Shown: in pieces, positions 3,694 to 55,181 of the stretch
How the letters are laid out: every line of letters begins with the position of its first letter
Position numbering within the stretch: position 1 is the first letter of the stretch
NCBI GenBank assembly: GCA_045653825.1
Contig: JAZOMI010000049.1
Coordinates: 1-58,716, forward strand
Origin: Candidatus Aphodosoma sp.
GTDB taxonomy: Bacteria; Bacteroidota; Bacteroidia; Bacteroidales; Paludibacteraceae
Direction: 5' to 3'
DNA: 58,716 nucleotides
Notes under the pieces: model-generated
Database searches by the model: none
Seen by the model: the letters and a program-made list of their open reading frames with translations, nothing else
What the model was told of the DNA's origin: nothing
Position numbers and translations under genes: made by a program

Positions 3694-3773
3694 TTTTTCA
3701 AGTTGAAAATTGAAAATTGAAAGTTGAAAGTTAATACCTACGGCAAAATTTCAAATTTCAAATTTCAAATTAA
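3694..3773. repeat. intergenic heptamer-word array (TGAAAAT/TGAAAGT then AAATTTC words)
   Basis: Period-7 tandem repeats. The two halves are near reverse complements around a short unique centre. Confidence 0.8.
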
Positions 3774-4771: not shown

Positions 4772-5046
4772 ATCAATTCAACTCTTTTTGTAATTAACTG
4801 ATTTACAACAAATCAGCTTTAAATAAATTTGTTTTAATAAATTAATTTATTGAAATATTTTTCAGTCCTCAAAGTTGTAATTTTTTTTTGACATAACAAA
4901 ATGTTTTTTAATATTTTTTCAAAAAAAATTACAAAAAACACTCATTGCAACAACCACAATACTAATAATCAACATATTAACCCAACTCTATTCTCAATTC
5001 TCAATTCTCAACTCTCAATTCTATTGCTACTTTCAACTTTTTTTTG

Positions 5047-7487: not shown

Positions 7488-7789
7488 TATTCCTCCCACA
7501 AATATCACAAATTCACACAAATATCTTTTGTGATTATTTGTATCATTCGTAGGAATATACATCATATTATATTTCTATCTTCAGCCAGCGAAGCTCGGCG
7601 TTCTTCCGTGAACCAACGGTCTTTGAACCTTTAGGTGAAAAAATTCTGTATATTCCGTGAGAAAAATATCATCAGTGAGAAAAGAAACGCTGAAAATCTG
7701 TCTTTAGTGTCGAGATTTTGCGAAGCAAAAGCAAGACCATCATGTAAAAAAGTAGGGACGCTCGGCTCTAGCGTCCGCAATATATTATT

Positions 7790-10770: not shown

Positions 10771-10780
10771 CCCCCCCCCC
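10771..10780. repeat. C10 homopolymer in a divergent promoter region
   Basis: Ten consecutive C within otherwise very AT-rich intergenic DNA between 9210..10601 (-) and 10935..11354 (+). Confidence 0.95.
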
Positions 10781-11408: not shown

Positions 11409-11573
11409 ATGAGTATGAACAATAAAATATATTTAGTAATCGTTTTTCTTCTAAGCTTAGGTCTCTTTTCTTGTTCAGATAAAACAAAAGAACATTCTAG
11501 TTTATTAGCAAATAATGATACGAGGAATATAATTACAGAAGATGGAGTTAGTATTTATGGGGGTAAAAACTAA
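11409..11573 (+). pseudogene. 5' stub of a lipoprotein gene, apparently truncated by the prophage insertion
   Basis: 54 codons (MSMNNKIYLVIVFLLSLGLFSC lipobox...DGVSIYGGKN*). The stop lies within the first bases of the prophage left end. It is too short for the ORF track. Confidence 0.45.
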
Positions 11574-11676
11574 ATGTACAAAAGTGTAGTTTGGGAATTG
11601 GGTTGGTAAGTGTTTGGTGGTGAGTTGGTTGTGTGGAGTTTTGTGGATTTGATTGGTGTAAACCAAATGTACAATT
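11566..11676 (+). repeat. prophage left-end transposase-binding-type sites
   Basis: AAAACTAAATGTACAAAA (11566-11583) and AAACCAAATGTACAATT (11660-11676) are exact reverse complements of the two right-end sites. Confidence 0.8.
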
Positions 11677-13889: not shown

Positions 13890-14084
13890 ATGAGTGAAAA
13901 GGGTTATACAATCGTACAATTGGTTTTGGCATCTTGCGTATTGGGATGCTCAACCGTGTCGCTCGTTGGAGCAATCGTGGTGCATGGGTTTCAGACCTGG
14001 CAGTTGGCAAATCTTACGTTCGTTGTGTTGTCGGCAGTGATGATGAAGTGGGCGGTTGAGGAGTACAGGGAAGCGAGGAAATAA
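13890..14084 (+). CDS. small two-TM membrane protein
   Basis: 64 aa with two hydrophobic helices. No family recognised. Confidence 0.5.
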   Translation: MSEKGYTIVQLVLASCVLGCSTVSLVGAIVVHGFQTWQLANLTFVVLSAVMMKWAVEEYREARK

Positions 14085-14163
14085 TGCATAATGCATAATG
14101 CACAATGCACAATTCACAATTCACAATGCACAATTCATAATTCATAATTCATAATTCATAATT
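14083..14163. repeat. heptamer-word array (AATGCAT/AATGCAC/AATTCAC/AATTCAT)
   Basis: About 11 tandem 7-nt words fill the spacer before the AAA+ gene. Confidence 0.85.
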
Positions 14164-14166
14164 ACT

Positions 14167-15048
14167 ATGTTAACAGAAGAACAAAAACAGAGAATAGCCG
14201 AAGCGATGGTGTTGCGCCGTGAGATGTTTGCGGGCACGGATTCGCAATGGGCATTGTCGTTGGGCATCAATGCCTCGGTATATAATCGCATCAAGCGCGG
14301 TGAGCGCGAGCGCGTGTTGGCAGATGCGAAATGGATAACGATAGCACGCTTGTTGGAGGTGGAGCTGTCGACAGCTTCGCCATGGAACACAGCACGCACG
14401 GCGGTGTTTGTCAGCGTGACGGCGCAGTTGCAGTTTTGCCAAGAGAACTCGTCGTGGGCGATACTATGCGACGAAGCTGGTATTGGGAAGACCTATGCAG
14501 CACGCTACTACTCGCGCACGAACAAGAATGTGGTGTATGTGGATTGTTCGCAACACAAGACTCGTCGCCGCCTCATGATAGAGATAGCACGAGCGCTGGG
14601 CGTTGACACCCACGGGACGTATTACGAAGTGTTTGACGACTTGCGCTACTACATCAAGACGATAGACCATCCACTGATTATTCTCGACGAAGCAGGCGAT
14701 CTGCGCTATGAGGCGTTTTTGGAAGTGAAGGCGTTGTGGAATGCGGTGGAGAACTGTTGCGGTATCTACATGCTCGGCGCTGATGGACTACGAGCAAAGA
14801 TAGAGCGAGGCATCAACTGCAGGAAGGTGGGTTTTGTGGAGCTCTTCGACCGTCAGGGGGCACGCTTCCAGCGCATCACGCCCGAAGGCCGAGAGGCACG
14901 CCAAGAGTTTCATGCTGCACAAGCAGCTGCTGTGATACGCGCCAATGCACCAGCCGACACCGACATACGAGCCATGCTTGCCGCTACTGACTGCCGACTT
15001 AGGAGGATATATATTGAGGTGAAGAAAAGAATGAGGAATGAGGAGTGA
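14167..15048 (+). CDS. MuB/TniB-like AAA+ ATPase with N-terminal HTH (transposition target-selection type)
   Basis: 293 aa with Walker A DEAGIGKT, Walker B LIILDEAG, and an N-terminal HTH-like WALSLGINASVYNRIKRG. Adjacent to the DDE transposase. Confidence 0.7.
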   Translation: MLTEEQKQRIAEAMVLRREMFAGTDSQWALSLGINASVYNRIKRGERERVLADAKWITIARLLEVELSTASPWNTARTAVFVSVTAQLQFCQENSSWAILCDEAGIGKTYAARYYSRTNKNVVYVDCSQHKTRRRLMIEIARALGVDTHGTYYEVFDDLRYYIKTIDHPLIILDEAGDLRYEAFLEVKALWNAVENCCGIYMLGADGLRAKIERGINCRKVGFVELFDRQGARFQRITPEGREARQEFHAAQAAAVIRANAPADTDIRAMLAATDCRLRRIYIEVKKRMRNEE

Positions 15049-15129
15049 GGAGTTAGGAGTTAGGAATTACCTCTAATCTCTAATCTCTAACCTCTAACCT
15101 ATAACCTTTCAACTTTCAACTTTTAACTG
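15046..15129. repeat. heptamer-word array (AGGAGTT then CTCTAAT/CTCTAAC/TCAACTT words)
   Basis: Purine-type words follow the stop; pyrimidine-type words precede the next ATG. Confidence 0.85.
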
Positions 15130-17136: not shown

Positions 17137-17250
17137 CAATGCACAATGCAGAATGCAGAATTAGGAATTGAGAATTAAGAATTGAGAATTGAGAATTTAG
17201 AATTGAGAATTAAGAATTGAGAATTGAGAATTGAGAATTAACTTTCAACT
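17137..17250. repeat. heptamer-word array (AATGCAC, AATGCAG, ~12 x GAGAATT-type words)
   Basis: Long uninterrupted period-7 array. Confidence 0.9.
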
Positions 17251-17877: not shown

Positions 17878-17962
17878 ACAATGCACAATACATAATGCAC
17901 AATGCACAATCTTTCACCTATAACCTTTCACCTATAACCTATAACCTCTAACCTCTAAATTT

Positions 17963-18415
17963 ATGGCACGAGAAATTGACAAAATTGAATCGAAGTTGCG
18001 TCGTACGTTTCATGCGATATGTGCGCAATTGGGCATGTCGGAGGATGAGCGCCGACAGATGCTTATGGCGAACTATGGAGTAGATACATCGACCGCCCTT
18101 GATGCTCATCAGCTCACCGACTTGGTGCACTCGCTTGAGGTGCATGTAGATTCGTCGCTCGACACATGGCGCAAACGCTTAATAGCCGTGATAGGCAAGG
18201 TGCTGAAGGCGCAAAGCAAAGAGGCAAACATAGCCTACATCAAAGCCGTAGCCGTGCGAGCATCGGGAGCCAAGGCGTTTAACCGCATACCACTGGACCG
18301 CCTGCGCTCGCTCTACAACTCGTTTCGCCACCAGTTGCACGACCTTGAGCATGCACCACGAGTGACGACCTACGAATTTCAGTACAGACCGAGTGGCAAT
18401 GAGTTGCCGAATTGA
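17963..18415 (+). CDS. GemA-like (Mu gp16, DUF1018-like) regulatory protein
   Basis: 150 aa. IHAICAQLGMSEDERRQMLMANYGVDTSTALDAHQLTDLVHSLE resembles the DUF1018 pattern, and the position in the Mu semi-essential early region fits. Confidence 0.5.
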   Translation: MAREIDKIESKLRRTFHAICAQLGMSEDERRQMLMANYGVDTSTALDAHQLTDLVHSLEVHVDSSLDTWRKRLIAVIGKVLKAQSKEANIAYIKAVAVRASGAKAFNRIPLDRLRSLYNSFRHQLHDLEHAPRVTTYEFQYRPSGNELPN

Positions 18416-18549
18416 GAATTGAGAATTGAGAATTAACTTTAACCTATAACCTCTAACCTTTAACCTATAACCTATAAGCACTAATCTTTAATTACTAACC
18501 CCAACGACTGCGAGTCTCGCTACTCGTTACTAAAAATCTAAAAAAAACA

Positions 18550-19273: not shown

Positions 19274-19412
19274 ACAATGCACAATTCATAATGCACAATG
19301 CACAATTGAGAACCTAAGGTCTTTGAGCCTTTGGAGATAAAATTAAGAATTAACTCTTAACTCTAACCTCTAACCATTAACCTCTAATCTCTAACTTCTC
19401 AACTTTCAATTT

Positions 19413-19634: not shown

Positions 19635-19724
19635 TTAAGGAGCAAGGAATAAGGAGTAAGGAGTAAGGAGTAAGGAGTAAGGATTCTCAACTCTAACCAT
19701 TAACCTCTAACCATTAACCTAAAA

Positions 19725-21610: not shown

Positions 21611-21783
21611 AGGAGTGAGGAATATGGAATGTGGAATTTTTGCGATAAGCGAAGGCAGAATCAAGCTCTGCTTGAGTTATGCTGAGCGAAGCAAAAATCA
21701 CGACCATAGGGAGGAATGAGGAATTAGGAATGAGAAATTAGGAGTGAGGAATTAGGAATTGTGCATTATGCATTGTGCATTGA

Positions 21784-23563: not shown

Positions 23564-23710
23564 ATTCTTTAAATTTTTAGTAGCGAGCTTTTTTTTAATG
23601 CACAATGCACAATTTTTAATGCACAATACACAATTGTTTAGGTTCGCCAGGGGTGAATAAAAAAAATTGTTAGTTATAGTTGGTAATTAGGAAAAATGTT
23701 GTAAATTTGC

Positions 23711-23785
23711 AGTCAGAAGAGTAAATGACTAACTTGACACGGGTGCTTGAGCCCCGCGGTTAGTCGTTTACTCTTCTTCTTTTTT
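23711..23785 (+). ncRNA. candidate small RNA A1 (19-bp terminal stem, apical hairpin, T-run)
   Basis: TAAATTTG -7 box at 23702-23709. Stem 23715-23733 / 23759-23777 with an inner hairpin CGGGTGC-TTGA-GCCCCG, then T5. Confidence 0.55.
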
Positions 23786-23854
23786 ATTCCTTTGGTAAAT
23801 ATTAATGTTTTTAGCCATATCCTTTGGTAATTTCAAAAAAAGTTGTAACTTTGC

Positions 23855-23954
23855 AGTGTCTTGACGGGTTCTTGCAATACAGAACAATCGGCGTGGGGCT
23901 TTGTGTCGCCACGCTTGTAAGTAAGATAACCACCCTTCGGGGTGGCTTTTTTTT
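23855..23954 (+). ncRNA. candidate small RNA B
   Basis: TTTG-N19-TAACTTTG promoter with the -7 box at 23846-23853. Terminator CCACCCTTCGGGGTGG (23930-23945) plus T8. Shares a CTTGAC..GGGT.CTTG motif with A1 and A2. Confidence 0.55.
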
Positions 23955-24024
23955 ATTCCCTTGGTAAATATTAATGTTTTTAGCCATATCCTTTGGTAAT
24001 TTTAAAAAAAAGTTGTAACTTTGC

Positions 24025-24100
24025 AGTCAGAAGAGTAAATGACTAACTTGATTCGGGTGCTTGAGCCCCGCGGTTAGTCGTTTACTCTTCTTCTTTTTTT
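24025..24100 (+). ncRNA. candidate small RNA A2 (near-identical copy of A1)
   Basis: Duplicate ~70-bp promoter module with the -7 box at 24016-24023. Stem 24029-24047 / 24073-24091 plus T7. The 3' arm covers the MuF stop codon on the opposite strand. Confidence 0.55.
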
Positions 24101-26750: not shown

Positions 26751-26811
26751 AAGAGTGAGGAGTTAGGAGTTAGGAGTTAGGAGTGATGAGTGATTTAATT
26801 GTGCATTGTTA

Positions 26812-27228: not shown

Positions 27229-27286
27229 AAGAGTGAGGAGTTAGGAGTTAGGAGTTAGGAGTGATTTAATTGTGCATTGTGCATTG

Positions 27287-28828: not shown

Positions 28829-28894
28829 AGGTTAGTGAGGAGTGAGGAATTAGGAATGAGGAATTAAAAATTCTCAATTCTCAACTCTCAACTC

Positions 28895-29350: not shown

Positions 29351-29598
29351 TCAATATTATTATAGGTTAGAGATTAGAGGTTAGTTAGAAATGAGGAATG
29401 AGGAATGAGGAATTGCTGAGCGAAGCAAAAATCACGACCGAAGGGAGTAATTCTCAATTCTCAACTCTCAATTCTCAATTCTGCATTGTTTTTACGGTGC
29501 AAATTTCGCCATATATTTACATATATAAAAAAAGTATGTAAGTTATTGACACTCTATTTTTTGCAATGACAAAAAATAGTGAAATTTGCACCAGCAAA

Positions 29599-29671
29599 AG
29601 CGGGTTGGAGCAGAGGTCAGCTCGCGGGGTTCATTCCCCCGAGGTCGGTGGTTCGAATCCACCACCCGCTA
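29599..29671 (+). tRNA. prophage-encoded tRNA with CAU anticodon (Met/Ile2-type) and an unusual U at position 37
   Basis: Hand-folded cloverleaf. Acceptor AGCGGGT/ACCCGCT, D arm GAGC-AGAGGTCA-GCTC, anticodon arm CGGGG-TTCATTC-CCCCG, variable AGGTC, T arm GGTGG-TTCGAAT-CCACC, discriminator A. Confidence 0.75.
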
Positions 29672-29727
29672 CAATTTTTACAATGCACAATTAACTCTAA
29701 ACTCTCAACACTCAACTCTAAACTAAA

Positions 29728-30612: not shown

Positions 30613-30711
30613 ATTACAGAGTACAGATTACAGAGTACAGATTACAGGTAATTCCTAACTCCTAATTTCTAACTAACCTTTAAACATTATTTAAACCTCA
30701 ATTAAACAATT

Positions 30712-34094: not shown

Positions 34095-34257
34095 ATTAAG
34101 GAATAAGGAACAGGGAGCAGAGAGCAGAGAGCAATGCACAATGCATAATTAAGAACCGAAGGTCTTTGAGCCTTTGGCGATAAAATTGAGAATTCTCACT
34201 CCTCATTCCTCATTCCTAATTCCTAACTAACTTCTAACCTTTCAACTTTCAACTATT

Positions 34258-34692: not shown

Positions 34693-34838
34693 TATTAAAG
34701 AACAAGGTGCAGGGAATAGGGAGCAGAGAGCAATGCACAATGCAGAATTAAGAACCGAAGGTCTTTGAGCCTTTGGCGATAAAATTAAGAATTCTCACTC
34801 CTCATTCCTCATTCCTAACTAACCCTAACCTCTCAATT

Positions 34839-38217: not shown

Positions 38218-38367
38218 ACGCTATTTAAATCACGTTTAATCATGATATTCCTCCCCTGTCTTAGGGGAACCGACGCTCGAAGCAAGAGCAGAAGGCAAGC
38301 TCGCTTGCATTATGCCTTGCAAGGAGGAGGAAGACAAAGTCAAAGTACCCACAGGACGGAGGGGTTT

Positions 38368-38399
<32 letters not shown>

Positions 38400-38400
38400 T

Positions 38401-39351
38401 ATGCTTCAACTGACAGCTAACATAACCATACGTTCGGCGCAAACATGGCAATTTGACCGTGTGAGCGAAGTGGAAATCGTGCGCGATAGCGAAACATTGA
38501 CCGACACCTGTCGCATAGTGTTGCCTCGCAAAGTGAAATGGAATGGGTCGGACGACATACCTCTGCGCCGTGGCGATACTATCACCATAGAACTTGGCTA
38601 CAACGGCAATAACCAATTTGCCTTTGCTGGATATGTGACATCGATAGGGCTGAAATCGCCTATCGAAATACGATGCGAAGACGAGATGTGGCGCATGAAA
38701 TCAATTGCTACCACAAAAAAAGCCTACAAAGCTGCCAATCTGAAAACCCTCATCAGCGACCAAAAGGTGGGAATACCCGTCAATGTGTTTGGCGAACAAA
38801 ACATAGGCGACTATCGTGTAACTGCCGACACGGTGGCAGAACTGCTCAACGAACTACGCAAACAAGGCATCCGCTCGTTTATTCGCTACAACAACGGACA
38901 AGCCGAACTCTGCATCGGAGTGCTATTCGACCGACAAGGAGCGCACCGACAAGTGTTCGACAACCGACGCAACATCATCAGCGACTCGCTACAATGGCAG
39001 ACTGCCGACGATGTGAAACTAAAGGTGAAAGCCGTGAACCTCGACAAGAACAATAAGCAAACCGTGGTGGAAGTGGGCGATGCCGATGGCGAAGTGCGCA
39101 CACTATACGCCACAGGCAAGAGCGACAGCCAACTGCGCTCGTGGGCAGAACAAGAACTGAAACGATTGAAACGCGACGGATTGGTTGGCTCGTTCGACAC
39201 CTTCGGTCATCTGCTCGTCGATAAACTCGACACCGTAGCAATCGTAATCGACTCGGTCCGCCGTGGCGAATATCAAGTGCAAAACAACACAATAAAATAT
39301 GGCTCATCAGGATTCAGACAATCAATAACCATTGGAGATAGACTCGCATAA
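38401..39351 (+). CDS. baseplate hub / late-control-D-like tail protein (Mu gp44 position)
   Basis: 316 aa from ATG 38401. The upstream part of the track ORF (38242-38400) is intergenic word sequence. Confidence 0.55.
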   Translation: MLQLTANITIRSAQTWQFDRVSEVEIVRDSETLTDTCRIVLPRKVKWNGSDDIPLRRGDTITIELGYNGNNQFAFAGYVTSIGLKSPIEIRCEDEMWRMKSIATTKKAYKAANLKTLISDQKVGIPVNVFGEQNIGDYRVTADTVAELLNELRKQGIRSFIRYNNGQAELCIGVLFDRQGAHRQVFDNRRNIISDSLQWQTADDVKLKVKAVNLDKNNKQTVVEVGDADGEVRTLYATGKSDSQLRSWAEQELKRLKRDGLVGSFDTFGHLLVDKLDTVAIVIDSVRRGEYQVQNNTIKYGSSGFRQSITIGDRLA

Positions 39352-40177: not shown

Positions 40178-40298
40178 TCTCAATTTTTGCGATAAGCGAG
40201 AGCAATTGAGTTTACTCGAATTGCCTAGCAAAGCAAAAATCTTGAGCGCAGCGAAAAACTCTCAACTTTCAACTCTCAACTTTCAACTCTCAACTCTT

Positions 40299-42743: not shown

Positions 42744-42782
42744 TTTTGTACATTTAGTTTTTTATAATTGTACATTTGGTTT
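42744..42782 (-). repeat. prophage right-end transposase-binding-type sites
   Basis: TTTTGTACATTTAGTTTT (42744-42761) and AATTGTACATTTGGTTT (42766-42782) are exact reverse complements of the left-end sites. Confidence 0.8.
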
Positions 42783-45288: not shown

Positions 45289-45303
45289 AAACTAAAAACA
45301 AAA

Positions 45304-45337
45304 GGCGGACACCCAAAACAAGGATGTCCGCCTTTTT
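45304..45337. terminator. bidirectional intrinsic terminator between convergent genes
   Basis: GGCGGACA (45304-45311) pairs with TGTCCGCC (45325-45332), with an A-run upstream and a T-run downstream. Confidence 0.75.
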
Positions 45338-45350
45338 ATTTTATATAACA

Positions 45351-46814
45351 TTAATTTCTTACCCTTTCAATTCGCATTGTATCAAGTTTCAGAAACAAAA
45401 ACAATAATATCGTAAAACTCAAAAAAGATGATCCTCCATAACTAAAAAATGGCAATGGAATACCAATCACAGGCACAAGCCCTATCACCATACCTACATT
45501 GATAAAAAGGTGAAATGCAAATATTCCTACAACTCCATATCCATACACTCGTGTGAAACGATTATCCTGACGTTCTGCAATATACAACAATCTATATAAA
45601 AACAATAAATAGACAATCAATACACCCGCACTACCCACAAATCCCCACTCCTCACCTACAGTACAAAAAATAAAATCTGTATGTTGCTCTGGTACATATT
45701 TCAATTTGGTTTGTGTTCCTTGCATAAATCCTTTACCCCAAAATCCACCCGAGCCAATAGCTATACGCGCCTGATTGGTATTATAACCAATACCTGTTGG
45801 GTCATCAGTCAATCCAAGTAAAAGTTGAATACGCTTTTGTTGATGTGTTTGCAACACATCATTAAATATATATTCTGATGAATAACAATAGCCTAAAGTC
45901 CCCAACAAAAATATAGCAATAAACAAATATGTACGACGCCACTTAATATATGCCAATACAAACAAATAAATCGCAGCACAAAGCGTAACTGCCAACATAA
46001 CATATACTAAATTATAACGCACAACCCATTTAAATAAAACCAAAGCTAAAACAAAAACACCCATAGGCACAAACGAAAGTATGAGCAAATGCTTTTTTTC
46101 AAATTGATATACCCTAATAAATATCAACATTATAACATACGAAATCAATAACCCTAAAAACAATCCCGTTGAAGCCCCTTCTACACCTAAAAATGGCACT
46201 ACGCTAAATCGCAAAACTACAATAAACAATAGTACAGCACAAAATCCTAAAGCAGGTATCAATCCTGGCAATCCCTCTCGATAAAGTAAAAAAATAAACG
46301 ATAAAAAAACCAAAGCTGATCCCGTTTCGCTCTGTGCCACAATAATAAACATAGGCAACAATATAAGCGAACAAACAATAGCATAATTTTTTGATGATTT
46401 CAATCGAAATTGAGGATGACTCATTACTTTGGCAAGAGCCAATGCAGTTATAAATTTCGAAAATTCAGCAGGCTGAATACTAAGAGGACCTAAAGGCAAC
46501 CACGAACGTGAACCCTTGATATCTTTGGCTACAATAAGGGTTACTATCAATAATATCAATATCAAACCATACAACAAATATGGCAGTGACATTATCAATC
46601 TACTATCGGTAAATAATATAATCAGCGCCATCACCAAACTAATACACATCCACACAAATTGCATCCCCGAACTACCATTCATGTCAAATATCGACATCTG
46701 ATATTCTGCAACACTAGCACCATATATATTTATCCAACCAAACACCACTAAGACGATATAAAAAAATACCGCCCATTTATCTAACGCTTGTATTACATTG
46801 AAATTTCTTGACAT
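45351..46814 (-). CDS. rodA: rod shape-determining protein RodA (SEDS family)
   Basis: 487 aa polytopic membrane protein with FtsW/RodA motifs (GSRSWLPLGPLSIQPAEFSK, TDFIF). Lies downstream of mrdA. Confidence 0.85.
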   Translation of the reverse strand: MSRNFNVIQALDKWAVFFYIVLVVFGWINIYGASVAEYQMSIFDMNGSSGMQFVWMCISLVMALIILFTDSRLIMSLPYLLYGLILILLIVTLIVAKDIKGSRSWLPLGPLSIQPAEFSKFITALALAKVMSHPQFRLKSSKNYAIVCSLILLPMFIIVAQSETGSALVFLSFIFLLYREGLPGLIPALGFCAVLLFIVVLRFSVVPFLGVEGASTGLFLGLLISYVIMLIFIRVYQFEKKHLLILSFVPMGVFVLALVLFKWVVRYNLVYVMLAVTLCAAIYLFVLAYIKWRRTYLFIAIFLLGTLGYCYSSEYIFNDVLQTHQQKRIQLLLGLTDDPTGIGYNTNQARIAIGSGGFWGKGFMQGTQTKLKYVPEQHTDFIFCTVGEEWGFVGSAGVLIVYLLFLYRLLYIAERQDNRFTRVYGYGVVGIFAFHLFINVGMVIGLVPVIGIPLPFFSYGGSSFLSFTILLFLFLKLDTMRIERVRN

Positions 46815-46989
46815 AATAAATAAAATTGAAAGTTGAAAGTTGAGAATTGAGAATTGAGAATTGAGAATTGAGAACCGAAGGTCTTTGAGCCTTTGGCGAT
46901 AAAATTGAAAATTGATAATTGAAAATTGATAATAAAATATTTAATTTCTAACTCCTAACTCCTAACTCCTAACTCCTAACTCCTCACTC
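46815..46989. repeat. composite intergenic unit: heptamer-word arrays flanking a hairpin word
   Basis: TGAAAGT and GAGAATT words, then GAACCGAAGGTCTTTGAGCCTTTGGCGATAAAATT, then TGAAAAT/TGATAAT words, then 5 x CTCCTAA words. Confidence 0.9.
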
Positions 46990-48867
46990 CTAATTCCTCA
47001 TTCCTAACTCCTCATTCCACATTTTAACATTAGGATTCAACACCATTGTTCTCATTCTATCGAATAACGCCTCCTGCTTTATCTCGCCATAAAGATACTG
47101 TTCAAGACAGAGCATAGCAATAGGACAAGCAAATTGCGCTCCAAAACCAGCATTTTCAATTACCACTGCAATAGCTATCTGCGGATTCTCTCGCGGAGCA
47201 TACCCGAAAAATATTGAGTGTGGTTTGCCTTGACTATTATCTGTAGTACCTGTTTTGCCACACACAACCAATTCTGAGAACTTATAAAAATGCGGAGTAC
47301 CATACTCACACACTCGCCACATACCTTCTTGCACTACATCATAATGTTTCTGACTAACATTTGCTTCATGTCGATGAGTCAAAAAAGTATCACATTTATT
47401 CAAATGCGGAGTTATATAATAACCTTCATTGGCAATAACAGCCGCAGCATTAGCAAGTTGAATTGGTGTTACCAACACCTCACCTTGTCCAATCGAGTTA
47501 GAACGAATAGTGAGAGCCTTCCACCCTCGCTCTCCATAAATTTTATTATACGTTTCTTCTCTATATATAGCCCCATCTTTCAACCCATACACATCTGAAT
47601 CTTCCCACTTAAAACCCAATCCAAAACTTAAAATATCTTCACGCCAACGAGTATAATTCTTTTTAAAATTAGCATTTCGCTCACCATAACCGTCTCGTTC
47701 AAGCGTCTCTTTATAAGCTAACCAAAAATATGGATTACAACTCTCTTGTATTGCCTCTTCAAGCCCTACTGGTGAACCATGATTGTGAGTACACTTTATT
47801 GGTTTAGAAAGCGGTCCGTTACAAGGAAATTTTGTGTAACGCGTAATCCCACCATGCTCCAAACAAACCAAGGCTTGTAAGGTTTTAAATGTCGAACCTG
47901 GCGAATACAACCCTCCTGTCGCACGATTGAGAAATGGTTTTGTCGCATCTTTCTGCAATATCGGATAATACTCCGAACGCAAACGTCCAACCAACAACGA
48001 TGGATTCCAGGTAGGATTAGATGCCATAGCCAAAATCTCTCCCGTCGATGGCTCTATTGCCACTATACTACCTATCTTTCCTTCCAACAACTTCTCGGCT
48101 ATCATCTGCAACTCTACATCTAACGTCGTTGTTATATTCTCACCTGCAACAGGCATTTTATCCAACTCGCCATCTTTATATTTTCCCTGAATACGACCCC
48201 GCGAATCGCGCAAAAGTATCTCTACTCCATTCACTCCCCTCAACTCTTTCTCGTAAGTCAACTCCAACCCTTCCGAACCAGCATAATCACCAGGACGATA
48301 ATAATCATCTCGCTCTATTTGTCGCTTACTCACCTCTCCAATCGAACCTAAAACATGTGCACCACAAGGATAATTATAATTACGCAATGTACGATTTTGA
48401 ACCGTAAAACCTGGAAATTTACGCAAATGCTCTTGAAGCATTGCATAATCCTCAGGCGACAATTGCGTCATAAATCTTTGTGGAGTCAATTGCGAATATC
48501 CATAATTCTTACGTCGATCTTTGATATATGCCATTCGATCACAAAATTGATCATACGTAATACCCAACAATCCACACAACTCTAATGTATCTATCGGAGT
48601 ACCTGCTTTTTTCTGATCTCGCAACTCCTTCATCGTTACCATCAAATCATACGTTGGCTGATTATATACCAACAACTTTCCATTACGGTCATAAATCAAT
48701 CCACGAGGCGCATAAAGTGTCTTTTGATAAAATGCATTTCCCTCTGCCGCATCAGTATAATTACCAAACAACTGCAATTGTGCCAACCTACCTATGAATA
48801 AAACCACAAATAGTGCTAACACAACAGAAATTATAATACTTCTATCTTTATATTTATCGTCTAACAT
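46990..48867 (-). CDS. mrdA: penicillin-binding protein 2
   Basis: 625 aa with an N-terminal TM helix and transpeptidase motifs (STFK, SNS, KTGT). Lies in the mreBCD-mrdA-rodA cluster. Confidence 0.9.
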   Translation of the reverse strand: MLDDKYKDRSIIISVVLALFVVLFIGRLAQLQLFGNYTDAAEGNAFYQKTLYAPRGLIYDRNGKLLVYNQPTYDLMVTMKELRDQKKAGTPIDTLELCGLLGITYDQFCDRMAYIKDRRKNYGYSQLTPQRFMTQLSPEDYAMLQEHLRKFPGFTVQNRTLRNYNYPCGAHVLGSIGEVSKRQIERDDYYRPGDYAGSEGLELTYEKELRGVNGVEILLRDSRGRIQGKYKDGELDKMPVAGENITTTLDVELQMIAEKLLEGKIGSIVAIEPSTGEILAMASNPTWNPSLLVGRLRSEYYPILQKDATKPFLNRATGGLYSPGSTFKTLQALVCLEHGGITRYTKFPCNGPLSKPIKCTHNHGSPVGLEEAIQESCNPYFWLAYKETLERDGYGERNANFKKNYTRWREDILSFGLGFKWEDSDVYGLKDGAIYREETYNKIYGERGWKALTIRSNSIGQGEVLVTPIQLANAAAVIANEGYYITPHLNKCDTFLTHRHEANVSQKHYDVVQEGMWRVCEYGTPHFYKFSELVVCGKTGTTDNSQGKPHSIFFGYAPRENPQIAIAVVIENAGFGAQFACPIAMLCLEQYLYGEIKQEALFDRMRTMVLNPNVKMWNEELGMRN

Positions 48868-48943
48868 TTAAATTGAAAGTTGAAAGTTTTCCTTATTCCC
48901 CTGCGGACGCTCAAGCCAAGCGTCCCTACTTGATCCTTACTCC

Positions 48944-49435: not shown

Positions 49436-50283
49436 TTTTCTAACGATTTTTGAAGATTCAACAACTCATTCTGATTTTCAAAAGCAAACACTGTCACATA
49501 CGTCAACGACTGAAAATCAACAGCTAGAGCAATATCTATATCACAATACATCGTATTTTCTACAATCGTAGCCTTATCAACAACACCTATCATCATACCT
49601 TCAGGAAATATTGCAGAAAAACCACTTGTCACAATCGTATCGCCAGCCACAACATTTACATGATTTGGTATTTCATATAATTTAGCTTTCAACGGACTCT
49701 TTCCATTCCATTTTACAGAACCTAACTGATTATTACCCTTTATCTTTGCACTTATCACCTGCTCTGGATTTATAATTGGCAACACTACAGAATAATTTTC
49801 ACTCACTCGTTGCACAACTCCCACAACACCCTGCGGAGCAAATACCCCCATATCCTCTTCCACTCCTTGCGCACTTCCCTTGTCGATAATTATATAGTTC
49901 TGCATATCATACACACTATTATAAACCACCTTCGCCGACAAATAATTATCACCACACTGCACCTCAACACTATCTACAATCTCTAATCTGTTATCTGTAA
50001 TCTGTAATCTGTTATCTGTAATCTGTAATCTATAATTCGCTATCTCTTTGTACAATCGAGCATTCTCCTCTGCTAAATACTTATTCGCCTCTGCCAATCC
50101 AAAATAATCTGTTACCGAATTAGTAATTCCATACACCCATGCCGTCAAAGTTGTCGCATAACGAAATGCCACCGAACGTTGCAAATCATTTTTATTCACG
50201 ACAAGCCCAAGTGCCAACATCTCCAACACCACGAAGATAATGACAGCCAAATATTTATAAAAAAACTCTAATATTTTATTCAT
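49432..50283 (-). CDS. mreC: rod shape-determining protein MreC
   Basis: Start taken at MNKILEFFYKY (50283). TM helix, coiled coil, and a conserved C-terminal core (GDTIVTSGFSAIFPEGMMIGVV). Confidence 0.85.
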   Translation of the reverse strand: MNKILEFFYKYLAVIIFVVLEMLALGLVVNKNDLQRSVAFRYATTLTAWVYGITNSVTDYFGLAEANKYLAEENARLYKEIANYRLQITDNRLQITDNRLEIVDSVEVQCGDNYLSAKVVYNSVYDMQNYIIIDKGSAQGVEEDMGVFAPQGVVGVVQRVSENYSVVLPIINPEQVISAKIKGNNQLGSVKWNGKSPLKAKLYEIPNHVNVVAGDTIVTSGFSAIFPEGMMIGVVDKATIVENTMYCDIDIALAVDFQSLTYVTVFAFENQNELLNLQKSLEK

Positions 50284-51443: not shown

Positions 51444-51562
51444 TTTTTTTAATTTATAATTAGTAATTAGCAATCAGTAATGAAAGTCATAATTATCAAC
51501 AAGCAAATTAGCATCTAAGACGTTAATAACTAATAACTAATCATTAATCATTATTTCAGTTG

Positions 51563-54143: not shown

Positions 54144-54178
54144 AATTCATAATTAAAACAATTCCTCATTCCTAATTC

Positions 54179-54931
54179 CTAACTCCTCATTGTATGAAAT
54201 ATATTCTCTATCGACCCATATTTCGCCACAAGCGCATCCTTCTCGCCCTGCTCAATCACATTACCCTTATTGATAACTATTACATCGTCGCATACTTGCT
54301 CCACCTCTTGCATAATATGAGTAGAAAATATCACCAATCTATCACGCCCCAAATCCTTAATCAACTGACGAATTTCTATCAACTGATTAGGGTCAAGACC
54401 TGTAGTAGGCTCATCGAGTATCAACACTTTCGGATTATGAATGATAGCCGCTGCAATACCCACTCTCTGACGATACCCCTTCGACAACTGCTTAATCAAC
54501 TTATGAGACTCACTCGTCAACCCCGTCCGCTCAATCACCTCCTCCACAACTTCTTTTTTCGCTAACTGTGCATTGTGCATTTTTCGCCAAGGCTCAAGAC
54601 CTTTGGTTGTGCATTGTGCATTATATATCCCTGCCACAAAGTCCAAATATTCACGCACATACATATCCAAATACAACGGATTGTGTTCTGGCAAATATCC
54701 CACCAATCTCTTAGTATCCACATCATCCACCGCCACTCTCTTGCCATCAATCAACACTTCTCCCTCATCGGCAGCAATATAACCCGTAACAATCTTCATC
54801 AACGTAGATTTACCCGCCCCATTCGGACCCAATAAACCCACAATGCGCCCAGCACCAAACTCCTGACATATAGAGTTCAACACCCTCTGCGCATCATAAC
54901 TTTTCGATATATTCTTTATTTCTAACAACAT
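54179..54931 (-). CDS. ABC transporter ATP-binding protein (GldA-like) carrying a ~19-codon repeat-derived insertion
   Basis: 250 aa with Walker A GPNGAGKST, signature LSKGYRQR and Walker B VLILDEPT. The extra segment NAQCTTKGLEPWRKMHNAQ is encoded by intergenic-type words (54566-54622). Confidence 0.85.
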   Translation of the reverse strand: MLLEIKNISKSYDAQRVLNSICQEFGAGRIVGLLGPNGAGKSTLMKIVTGYIAADEGEVLIDGKRVAVDDVDTKRLVGYLPEHNPLYLDMYVREYLDFVAGIYNAQCTTKGLEPWRKMHNAQLAKKEVVEEVIERTGLTSESHKLIKQLSKGYRQRVGIAAAIIHNPKVLILDEPTTGLDPNQLIEIRQLIKDLGRDRLVIFSTHIMQEVEQVCDDVIVINKGNVIEQGEKDALVAKYGSIENIFHTMRS

Positions 54932-55181
54932 AATCTAATAACATCTATAATACCCTACATTACATTAACATTGTACATCAAAATACTATTAACCTAATAT
55001 TGTCCCCCTGTCTTAGGGGGACGAGCCCAATGGGCGGAAGGGGTCAAAAAATTAATAATAATTGAAACGCAAAAATACAAAAAAATTATGAATTCAACAC
55101 TAAAAAAATATAGTTATTTTCACTCAAAAAAAATAATTGTGCATTGTGCATTGTGCATTTTTTAGTAACTTTACGATCCGT

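Follow-up and report, generated by a model that had tools for sequence, protein, structure and literature searches.

The stretch of DNA analyzed here, referred to as the window, comprises the 58,716 nucleotides of contig JAZOMI010000049.1 of Candidatus Aphodosoma sp. Its host genes include rimP-nusA, nusB, coaE, an ABC-transporter ATPase gene, ruvB and the series mreB-mreC-mreD-pbp2-rodA, together with a gene for a protein with a type IX secretion (T9SS) sorting domain, while a Mu-like transposable prophage occupies positions 11556–42797. The feature under study is the spacer at 46815–46989, on the minus strand, which separates pbp2 (mrdA; 46990–48867, minus strand, Pfam PBP_dimer and Transpeptidase), lying upstream of it, from rodA (FtsW/RodA/SpoVE family by Pfam; 45351–46814, minus strand, ATG at 46814–46812), lying downstream. 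This spacer, as many others in host and prophage, is made of tandem heptanucleotide words. The host is a Candidatus Aphodosoma-like Bacteroidales, as deduced from the 85–91% identity of the window PBP2 to those of Candidatus Aphodosoma / Paludibacteraceae metagenome-assembled genomes (MAGs) from animal and human guts, from the T9SS sorting domain and from the presence of Bacteroidetes-type promoters. Exact-protein look-ups run with PBP2, the major head protein and a 73-aa phage protein gave no match.

Read in the sense of the genes (minus strand), the last 34 nt of pbp2 are followed by purine heptamers, AT-rich G-free words, a hairpin word, CTCAATT/CTTTCAA words, the short sequence TTTTATTTATT and the rodA ATG. 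Tandem Repeats Finder (TRF) placed three arrays there, at 46824–46874, 46901–46933 and 46948–47023. The stop-side array (46948–47023, minus strand; period 7, 9.3 copies) is purine-rich and C-free, with about 11 units of the type (AGGAATG/AGGAGTT/AGGAGTG)n. It begins 34 nt within pbp2, of which it encodes the final 11 codons (47023–46990, MWNEELGMRN*), one of its words providing the TAG stop; the PBP2 of relatives ends in ...NVKKY* or ...NVKTY*, without any array-encoded tail. Then come the central AT-rich, G-free words (CAATTTT/CAATTAT)n (46900–46947, minus strand; TRF period 7 and also 14), the 27-nt mini-hairpin word AACCGAAGGTCTTTGAGCCTTTGGCGA (46873–46899), which is on the plus strand, antisense to the flanking genes, and the start-side G-free arrays of pyrimidine type, (CTCAATT)x5 followed by (CTTTCAA)x2 (46826–46872, minus strand; TRF period 7, 7.3 copies). 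The final 11 nt of the leader, TTTTATTTATT (46815–46825, minus strand, by reading of the sequence), abut the rodA ATG. A 41-nt portion of the stop-side array is 95% identical, in gene sense, to the tail and trailer of the phage AAA-ATPase gene (15029–15069).

The spacer is neither a terminator, nor a promoter, nor a member of an Rfam family, according to the scans made. No terminator-like site (an intrinsic terminator being a G+C-rich stem plus a U-tract) was found in 46815–46989, no Bacteroidetes-type promoter (TTTG N18–21 TAnnTTTG) on the gene strand of the spacer, and only chance-level Rfam matches in 46700–47100 (E 0.2–0.5, far under gathering). The promoter pattern has 10 matches in the window versus 2.0 expected, genuine terminators sit in array-free spacers (e.g. 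45300–45336), and in the whole window a tRNA-Met was the sole Rfam match at gathering score.

The extent of the arrays was estimated with a strict custom scan of the window, which returned 25 arrays, all of them at period 7, whereas periods 4–6 and 8–12 yielded nothing; 20 second-order Markov shuffles gave none. About 85% of the array bases are non-coding, the arrays covering 8.8% of the non-coding versus 0.3% of the coding DNA. A preliminary description of this DNA had listed 21 intervals as runs of heptanucleotide words, and TRF found period-7 arrays in all of them: 2331–2442, 3694–3773, 4985–5035, 14083–14163, 15046–15129, 17137–17250, 17878–17962, 18413–18480, 19274–19412, 19635–19724, 21700–21783, 26751–26811, 27229–27286, 28829–28894, 29351–29480, 30613–30711, 34095–34257, 34693–34838, 40255–40298, 46815–46989 and 54144–54178. 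TRF array lengths reach 11.9 copies in the window. The arrays are thus real, but the statement that nearly every spacer is built in this way was too strong, as tandem heptamers occur at 21 of 32 curated co-directional junctions of the window. With a stricter array threshold, they are found at 14/31 prophage versus 5/22 host junctions, and their density per 10 kb is 8.9 in the prophage versus 4.4–5.0 in the adjacent host DNA. Spacers bearing terminators are array-free, and so are several of those bearing promoters. A restriction of the arrays to promoter-less junctions was considered and rejected, since the TAnnTTTG box is present in 15/50 array-bearing upstream regions versus 65/191 overall (p = 0.6). 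AT-only arrays exist too (2340–2384, 51457–51553). At some orthologous junctions (L001, L003, L067, L072 and L077; L numbers designate the loci and contigs compared) 9-nt words, namely CTAGAAAAC, GACTTGTCT and CCGTAGACT/CCGTTGACC, replace the 7-mers, and therefore the phenomenon is not strictly bound to period 7.

Concerning the composition of the arrays on either side of the spacers, counts were made on the co-directional spacers of the window and of ten MAG loci. G-free arrays amounted to 17 of 23 in start-proximal position versus 6 of 23 in stop-proximal position (Fisher p = 0.003), and the purine content of both groups was also different (Mann–Whitney p = 1e-4), in agreement with the earlier claim of G-poor leaders and purine-rich trailers. 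The asymmetry is, however, largely one-sided, on the start side: there, the ratio of G-free to C-free arrays was 17:2, whereas on the stop side that of C-free to G-free was 10:6. Among the arrays ending ≤25 nt from an ATG, 16/21 are G-free. Start-proximal arrays contain 25–45% C, and no G, over 30–110 nt; ATG is contained in 0/23 start-proximal words, and any start codon in 2/23. The idea that stop-side words were picked for having stop codons in all frames was discarded, as a stop codon is carried by 13/23 stop-side words versus 12/23 start-side words, and by a fraction 0.51 of random AT-rich heptamers.

The order of the words was counted in nine phage copies, over 55 co-directional junctions lying on both strands. 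Words of the AATGCAC type came before pyrimidine words in 33/33 cases and purine words did so in 19/19, while CTTTCAA/CTAACCT-type words were nearest to the ATG in 35/43; in the window alone, both order tests gave 5/5 and 5/5. So, the fixed order proposed in the preliminary description stands in these respects, but not for AATGCAC-type relative to purine words, the order of which is variable (6/11). At the phage junctions, AATGCAC-type words follow the sense of the genes in 35 cases and run antisense in 1. The vocabularies of both sides are mutually reverse-complementary (AATGAGG/ATTCCTC, AGGAGTT/AACTCCT, AAATTTG/AAATTTC), a word W after a stop being mirrored by revcomp(W) before a start; the purine-to-pyrimidine order survives reverse complementation and therefore is, by itself, no proof of gene orientation. 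Furthermore, in the host some AATGCAC arrays point away from the start of a gene and overlap a Bacteroidetes-type promoter there: at 55136–55159, and in the L002 orthologue, the array places TTG 19 nt ahead of a TAACTTT(A/G) box, the arrangement of the Bacteroidetes promoter consensus.

Each set has 12–27 canonical words. Those of host and prophage belong to a shared vocabulary, as had been proposed: 6/12 host words and 10/18 prophage words are common with other Aphodosoma loci. In array-bearing Mu-like contigs from elsewhere, only 1/18 prophage words was found, and hence the vocabulary follows the host lineage.

The hairpin word of the pbp2-rodA spacer had been taken for unique, but it is a repeated 27-nt element. 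AACCGAAGGTCTTTGAGCCTTTGGCGA has 4 copies in the window, 3 of them in the prophage, versus 0 expected by chance; it is identical in host and phage, it is flanked by heptamer words, and a stem is predicted for it. It occurs in both orientations: related loci hold about 20 copies in sense and, at 2 independent sites, the antisense form. No compensatory changes were seen among its copies, and a search of IMG/VR with its 19-nt core gave no match. A second recurrent hairpin word, of 38 nt (TGCTGAGCGAAGCAAAAATCACGACC...), which contains the GCGAAGC mini-hairpin motif, was found at 21680–21717, 29414–29451 and 40222–40259, and it substitutes for the first hairpin word at one junction of phage copies L074 and L079. 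Entire modules are met again at junctions that are not orthologous, in host and phage: a 69-nt hairpin module has 5 copies distributed between both, and neighbouring junctions have in common modules of 125 nt with 93% identity (the 34095–34257 junction versus 34694–34818) and of 50 nt with 94%. No transposase associated with the hairpin words was found in the window.

The pairing of the two halves of a spacer, also put forward in the preliminary description, is possible, but it is no better than in shuffled sequences. The minimum free energy (MFE) of the pbp2-rodA spacer is −42.2 kcal/mol, whereas its dinucleotide shuffles average −40.6 kcal/mol (z = −0.39), and the z values of the spacers lie mostly between −2 and +0.7. 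A few of them fold better than half-wise shuffles (3694–3773, z = −4.5; 2331–2442, z = −3.1; 34095–34257, z = −3.0), while those without a purine arm have MFE near 0 (26751–26811, 27229–27286, 17878–17962). As, in addition, the arms of the same spacer are usually not exact reverse complements, specific complementarity of the halves was rejected. It was likewise rejected that array leaders are more open than ordinary ones, the predicted openness being 0.528 versus 0.497 (p = 0.31).

Comparison with relatives showed that the arrays are recent, lineage-specific insertions between genes that ancestrally overlapped or abutted each other. Arrays were found in L001–L004, L006, L007 and L010 (PBP2 74–91% identical), and the strict scan returned none in L005 (PBP2 86%), L009 (70%) or L008 (55%). 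At the pbp2-rodA junction, the rodA ATG overlaps or abuts the pbp2 stop in the distant relatives L008–L010, there is a plain gap of 30–45 nt in L004–L006, and different words, 9-mers included, are present in each of L001, L002, L003, L007 and the window. In every array-bearing pbp2-rodA junction, G-free words adjoin the ATG.

The arrays also turn over much more rapidly than the genes beside them, in copy number (often by 7-nt steps), word type and hairpin content. The near-identical strain L064 (JAEIGA010034033.1) has the same pbp2-rodA spacer, with the hairpin word in the same orientation, but about half of the purine units and (CTCAATT) x4 versus x5 in the window. Before ruvB, (AATTATG) is repeated x2 in the window versus x5 in the strains of the L068 group. 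Such differences between close relatives, also seen in mreC and at the phage junctions, are as predicted for slippage; the strains that differ before ruvB and in mreC are 97–99% identical. The L068 group is formed by four contigs (L068–L071) with identical MreB and 98.4–99.1% identity to the window over 6.1 kb. Their high-identity block stops exactly at window position 47023, where the stop-side array starts, and a different 66-nt spacer lies beyond. From 47023 to 44304, L068 is about 86% identical over a segment that takes in the spacer, rodA, the terminator and the greater part of the adjacent gene with the T9SS tail, the flanks being 98–99% identical and the identity returning to 99% from 44304. 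This is an allelic replacement, with one breakpoint at the array start.

As a separate observation, in the first ~170 nt of L064 (in rodA sense) a GC-rich gene with a strong Shine-Dalgarno (SD) sequence lies directly upstream of the purine array in place of pbp2; this upstream join reflects either a chimeric assembly at the low-complexity array or the insertion of foreign DNA. In favour of the arrays being assembly or synthetic artefacts, low-complexity repeats are able to break or mis-join short-read assemblies, and the L064 contig, which ends next to this gene about 170 nt upstream of the array, may contain a chimeric join. This explanation is, however, effectively refuted. The same array-bearing junctions, with conserved flanks, appear in many independent assemblies from different projects and studies, which answers the artefact concern raised in the preliminary description; single arrays are mostly below the length of sequencing reads; reading frames are intact, and arrays inside coding sequences keep a 21-nt step.

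The prophage carries most of the arrays of the window. Its limits, 11556–42797, were set by the 99%-identical strain L068, where an empty site joins 11555 to 42798 with a ~4-bp TATT duplication, so it is polymorphic within the species. Inverted end repeats AAC(T/C)AAATGTACA lie at 11568–11580 and 11661–11673 (plus strand) and at 42747–42759 and 42769–42781 (minus strand). The prophage is GC-richer than the host, and its genes include those for transposase, AAA-ATPase, Gam, GemA-like protein, terminase, Mu-type portal, Mu F, major head, tape measure and baseplate hub. The median co-directional gap is 81 nt. In five related Mu-like phages from other hosts (portal similarity 57–60%) no period-7 arrays were found, and the median co-directional gaps are 3–20 nt in four of them and 76 nt in the fifth. 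The nearest phage genomes are unannotated human-faecal contigs (terminase identity 65%), Mu-like isolates from Bacteroidota are at about 33%, and none of them is informative on the repeats. Several array-bearing IMG/VR contigs correspond to Mu-like relatives with the same layout. In unrelated phage contigs with 58% GC (IMG/VR L016/L026 and L020/L023), (CTCAATT)4–5 abuts the ATG of many genes, without a purine arm, and the (CTCAATT) copy number varies between related contigs.

Eight further copies of the prophage, with major-head genes 97.4–98.1% identical, were found at other integration sites. All the junctions examined differ among copies in word number, word type and hairpin inserts, with retention of the order. 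The terL-gp36 junction ranges from 58 to 178 nt, and the one before the major head gene has 91, 98, 126 or 140 nt in the eight other copies, i.e. multiples of 7 apart, and 99 nt in the window copy. Hairpin words are present, absent, swapped for a different hairpin or inverted; for instance, the terS-terL junction occurs with or without the hairpin word among phages ~98% identical. Two junctions of the window copy illustrate the architecture. The one at 34095–34257 (plus strand), of which the eight other copies have variants, displays the full order, purine, AATGCAC, hairpin, ATTCCTC, CTAACCT/CTTTCAA and ATG, and the one at 15029–15129 (plus strand) is made only of heptamers in one continuous period-7 phase: GGAGTTA x2, GGAATTA, CCTCTAA..., CCTTTCA... 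and ATG.

Some arrays are located inside genes. In the ABC-transporter ATPase gene (54179–54931), AATGCAC words and a variant of the hairpin word form an in-frame insertion at 54566–54622 (minus strand), recorded as 15 residues and encoding NAQCT-TKGLEPWRK-MHNAQ. It is absent from L002, L007, L010 and L068, while L006 and L003 have the words without the hairpin, a distribution that looks like a two-step invasion of the coding sequence. In mreC, a heptamer array with a 21-nt super-period (49971–50045, minus strand; TRF periods 7 and 21) encodes RLQITDN RLQITDN RLEIVDS; the heptad peptide repeat RLQITDN lies in the N-terminal region of MreC, and L070 and L071 have one 21-nt unit fewer (295 versus 302 aa; x1 versus x2). 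Two other apparent cases were artefacts of open reading frame (ORF) calling. The ORF surrounding the array at 4990–5018 is spurious, and the array at 38368–38400 lies 5′ of the true start of the baseplate hub gene: the longest ORF starts at 38242, but the profile match starts at the ATG at 38401, directly after a (TCAACTC)x4.6 array, and this ATG is taken as the start because the profile aligns from residue 1. Arrays can thus mislead the calling of start codons; they also extend or truncate the C-termini of proteins, add in-frame peptides and may break or mis-join assemblies.

It is probable, in our opinion, that the spacers are hypermutable heptanucleotide simple-sequence repeats, with nested mini-hairpins of ~27–38 nt, shaped by a filter acting on the start side, and that the arrays colonised transcribed intergenic gaps in one Candidatus Aphodosoma subclade and in its Mu-like phages. 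Slipped-strand mispairing, insertion of mini-hairpins and ectopic recombination or gene conversion between junctions would generate arrays in either orientation, and selection at the translation start would remove those putting G beside the ATG. G would bring start codons, SD-like sequence and pairing potential, while G-free words, holding no ATG, GTG or TTG, would fold weakly. Bacteroidia make no use of SD sequences; low structure around the start tunes their initiation, and AUG is less frequent there than expected (PMC6847099). Since they initiate in this SD-less manner on unstructured, AUG-poor leaders, only G-free words would be tolerated beside the ATG, and with such a filter the purine C-free words and the G-containing words (AATGCAC) would persist only on the stop side. 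The arrays would then serve as ordinary, acceptable intercistronic leaders, not as special enhancers, and hypermutable junctions and shared sequence for recombination would be side effects. The near-uniform sense orientation of AATGCAC in the phage may provisionally be attributed to the copying of ordered modules as a whole. The polarity is shared by independent arrays made of unrelated words, which speaks for a constraint, beyond the descent from one module, that sets the start side.

Several points weigh against this interpretation. The filter does not predict the 35:1 sense bias of AATGCAC in the phage, because both orientations contain G and start codons. Arrays located upstream of candidate −7 boxes, and so possibly outside the mRNA leader, are G-free towards the gene in 8/11 cases. 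The (CTCAATT)4–5 found at the ATGs of unrelated phages looks more like a selected signal than like tolerated junk. Junctions counted in different phage copies are not independent of each other, and it is from sequence that we infer both the co-transcription of the arrays and their effects on translation. The AATGCAC bias, the polarity upstream of promoters and the (CTCAATT)4–5 of foreign phages keep alive a sequence-specific regulatory reading.

One form of such a reading, rather unlikely in our view, is that an RNA-binding protein (for instance S1, a cold-shock-type OB-fold protein or an RRM protein) recognises the words as its sites, in a post-transcriptional network used by the phage too. 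Start-side arrays would recruit or position ribosomes, as SD substitute or enhancer, and stop-side AATGCAC and purine words would influence ribosomes at termination or the processing of the mRNA. Leaders with G-free direct repeats, as the TMV omega sequence, enhance SD-independent translation via S1. The arrays abutting ATGs, also in unrelated high-GC phage contigs, the AATGCAC bias and the order kept despite fast turnover agree with this possibility, which has also been proposed for the TAACTGA repeats described below (PMC4679880). However, orthologous junctions differ in words, or have no array, in close relatives and even within the species, and therefore no particular word is required; the openness of start regions is the same with or without arrays; many word types coexist in each set; and no candidate binding protein came up. 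Of similarly low probability is an intercistronic expression code, specific to the lineage and suited to ribosomes that do not read SD sequences, in which each ordered spacer would combine a stop-side AATGCAC/SD-like purine module, dealing with terminating ribosomes or with the mRNA, and a G-free runway bringing ribosomes to the first AUG. The code would have been written and spread by an active mechanism involving mini-hairpins and module copying, and adopted at nearly every junction by the Mu-like phages, which may ferry it between hosts. If this were true, copy-number slippage would be a built-in rheostat of relative gene dosage in operons.

The remaining alternatives have less in their favour. 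It is unlikely that the arrays are kept as recombination joints for the exchange of genes or alleles between phages, between junctions or between phage and host, with the order resulting from the concerted evolution of one ancestral module. The identity block that ends exactly at 47023, followed by the 86%-identical allele of spacer, rodA and part of the next gene, would fit such joints, as would the near-identical modules that flank single phage genes, the exchange of hairpin cassettes between junctions of phage copies and the rearrangement role suggested for long heptamer arrays (PMC4679880). Nevertheless, just one clear breakpoint was examined, and alignments necessarily stop where arrays differ; module copying alone is insufficient for independent arrays of different words, 9-mers included, that share the polarity; and a recombination benefit is a consequence, not a demonstrated cause. 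Still less probable is that each spacer is a selected hairpin of RNA or single-stranded DNA, in which a purine arm starting no later than the stop codon would pair with the pyrimidine arm that contains the next start region; translation of the upstream gene would then open the downstream start (translational coupling), or the stem would serve in processing or stability. The halves can indeed pair through A-U, G-C and G-U, purine arrays often begin inside the upstream coding sequence (47023, 15029), pbp2 and rodA ancestrally overlapped and hence were coupled, and the MFE of the pbp2-rodA spacer and the few spacers that beat half-wise shuffles are on the same side. The dinucleotide-shuffle z of that spacer and the z values of most others are against it, as are the many junctions without purine arm, the arms of one spacer that are usually not reverse complements, and the hairpin word present in both orientations without compensatory changes. 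It is very improbable, finally, that the C-rich G-free arrays are Rho loading sites that block the entry of untranslated or antisense transcripts into genes. There is a mirror symmetry, in that the G-free strand is directed to the closest gene at starts, on the opposite strand after stops, and even upstream of candidate promoters, and the C content and length of the start-side arrays would be suitable; but a phage late operon would pay a high price for having such a site ahead of each cistron, the bias on the stop side is slight (10 C-free versus 6 G-free) and AT-only arrays exist.

Turning to known systems, the feature belongs to the generic class of heptanucleotide simple-sequence repeats, being an unusually orderly example and not a new kind of element. 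The preliminary description did not recognise it as a described family, and this is correct for this family and host, but not for the class, of which short tandemly repeated repetitive (STRR) sequences, long simple-sequence repeats (LSSR) and TAACTGA-type repeats have been described. The host group, the near-complete building of junctions from ordered words, an active Mu-like phage with the host vocabulary and the turnover at strain level appear to be new; literature searches for heptamer arrays in Bacteroidales phages gave no description, MacGregor 2015 alone being relevant. The STRR heptanucleotide sequences, reportedly described by Mazel and co-workers in 1990 in heterocystous cyanobacteria, are likewise tandem 7-nt units with many word types, mostly intergenic, lineage-specific and hypervariable. 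Here, in contrast, the host is a gut Bacteroidales, operon-internal junctions are filled in purine-to-pyrimidine order, and a phage has been colonised. The STRR units CCCCAGT, TTGGTCA and CAACAGT have no tandem copy here; this and the Bacteroidales host discard a cyanobacterial origin or STRR membership.

Another precedent is that of the heptamer direct repeats with the unit TAACTGA, which occur in Beggiatoaceae, in cyanobacteria and in five Bacteroidetes, among them Paludibacter propionicigenes (MacGregor 2015, PMC4679880). They are found forward, within a few nt, or up to ~40 nt, upstream of starts in SD-poor genomes, with one reversed set after a stop; relatives have shorter, repeat-free spacers, and “larger assemblages of heptamer repeats” are mentioned in Bacteroidetes spacers (PMC4679880). 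Here too, forward words lie shortly upstream of starts (16/21 G-free) and reverse-complement words after stops. TAACTGA itself has 0 tandem and 5 single copies in the window, the nearest words being TAACTCC and TAACCTC, and the many words, ordered whole spacers, nested hairpins, phage involvement and strain-level variation are differences. The LSSR, in the part of the work of Mrazek et al. 2007 that is relayed in PMC4679880, have units of 5–11 nt, most commonly 7 nt, occur sporadically across phyla and are attributed to polymerase slippage. As in LSSR, there are here unexpected head-to-tail repeats (25 arrays versus 0 in shuffles) and coding arrays in multiples of three (the 21-nt unit of mreC). 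LSSR are a statistical class without positional grammar, whereas the arrays described here are far from random in where, and on which strand, they lie with respect to start codons.

Concerning the hairpin words, REP/BIME are comparable in being short intergenic palindromes that form mosaics inside operons. The window has two copies of a REP-like, GTAG-headed hairpin (GTAGGGACGCTyGGCTynAGCGTCCGC) at 7752–7778 (plus strand) and 48903–48929 (minus strand). However, the spacer bulk consists of tandem 7-mers, the GTAG hairpins are not array units, and no RAYT-type transposase was found among the scanned window proteins. The small dispersed repeats (SDR) of Nostoc, as reported by Elhai and co-workers in 2008, are said to be hairpin-forming mobile elements of 21–27 nt, often within heptamer arrays. 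AACCGAAGGTCTTTGAGCCTTTGGCGA and the 38-nt word behave like them, in that they are hairpin-forming, dispersed, nested in heptamers in both orientations and present or absent at orthologous sites, one of them in frame within a gene; the phylum is different, and so presumably is the sequence.

To our knowledge, no mechanism or function has been established in thirty years for heptanucleotide repeat systems, which are known mainly from cyanobacteria and giant sulfur bacteria, hard to work with. A similar system is now at hand in a genus of gut Bacteroidales, near tractable models, and in a Mu-like phage that is active and polymorphic. Dozens of natural junction variants exist in public assemblies, and therefore the system is directly testable by comparative genomics and with Bacteroides reporters. 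Testable matters include the mutation rate of the arrays, the effect of orientation on SD-independent translation, the movement of the 27-nt hairpin and the junction-driven mosaic exchange between phage and host.

Other features of the window are the following. The left end of the prophage (11.6–12.45 kb) contains a G-rich block with 10–12-nt repeats, possibly transposase-binding sites. A unit of ~170 nt is duplicated in the prophage (23692–23785 and 24006–24099, with 23780–23841 and 23949–24010), each unit having a Bacteroidetes-type promoter (TTTG N19–20 TAACTTTG, plus strand) followed by a strong hairpin; these units are candidate small RNAs antisense to the head-morphogenesis operon. The tRNA-Met lies in the prophage at 29599–29672, between the divergent packaging and head operons, and is followed by AATGCAC/CTCTAAA words and the next ATG. 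The tRNA-Leu(CAA) called by ARAGORN within the pbp2 coding sequence (48381–48468, minus strand), without Rfam support, is probably a false positive. In the host DNA, a run of ten C at 10771–10780, within a long AT-rich divergent spacer, is possibly a phase-variable tract.

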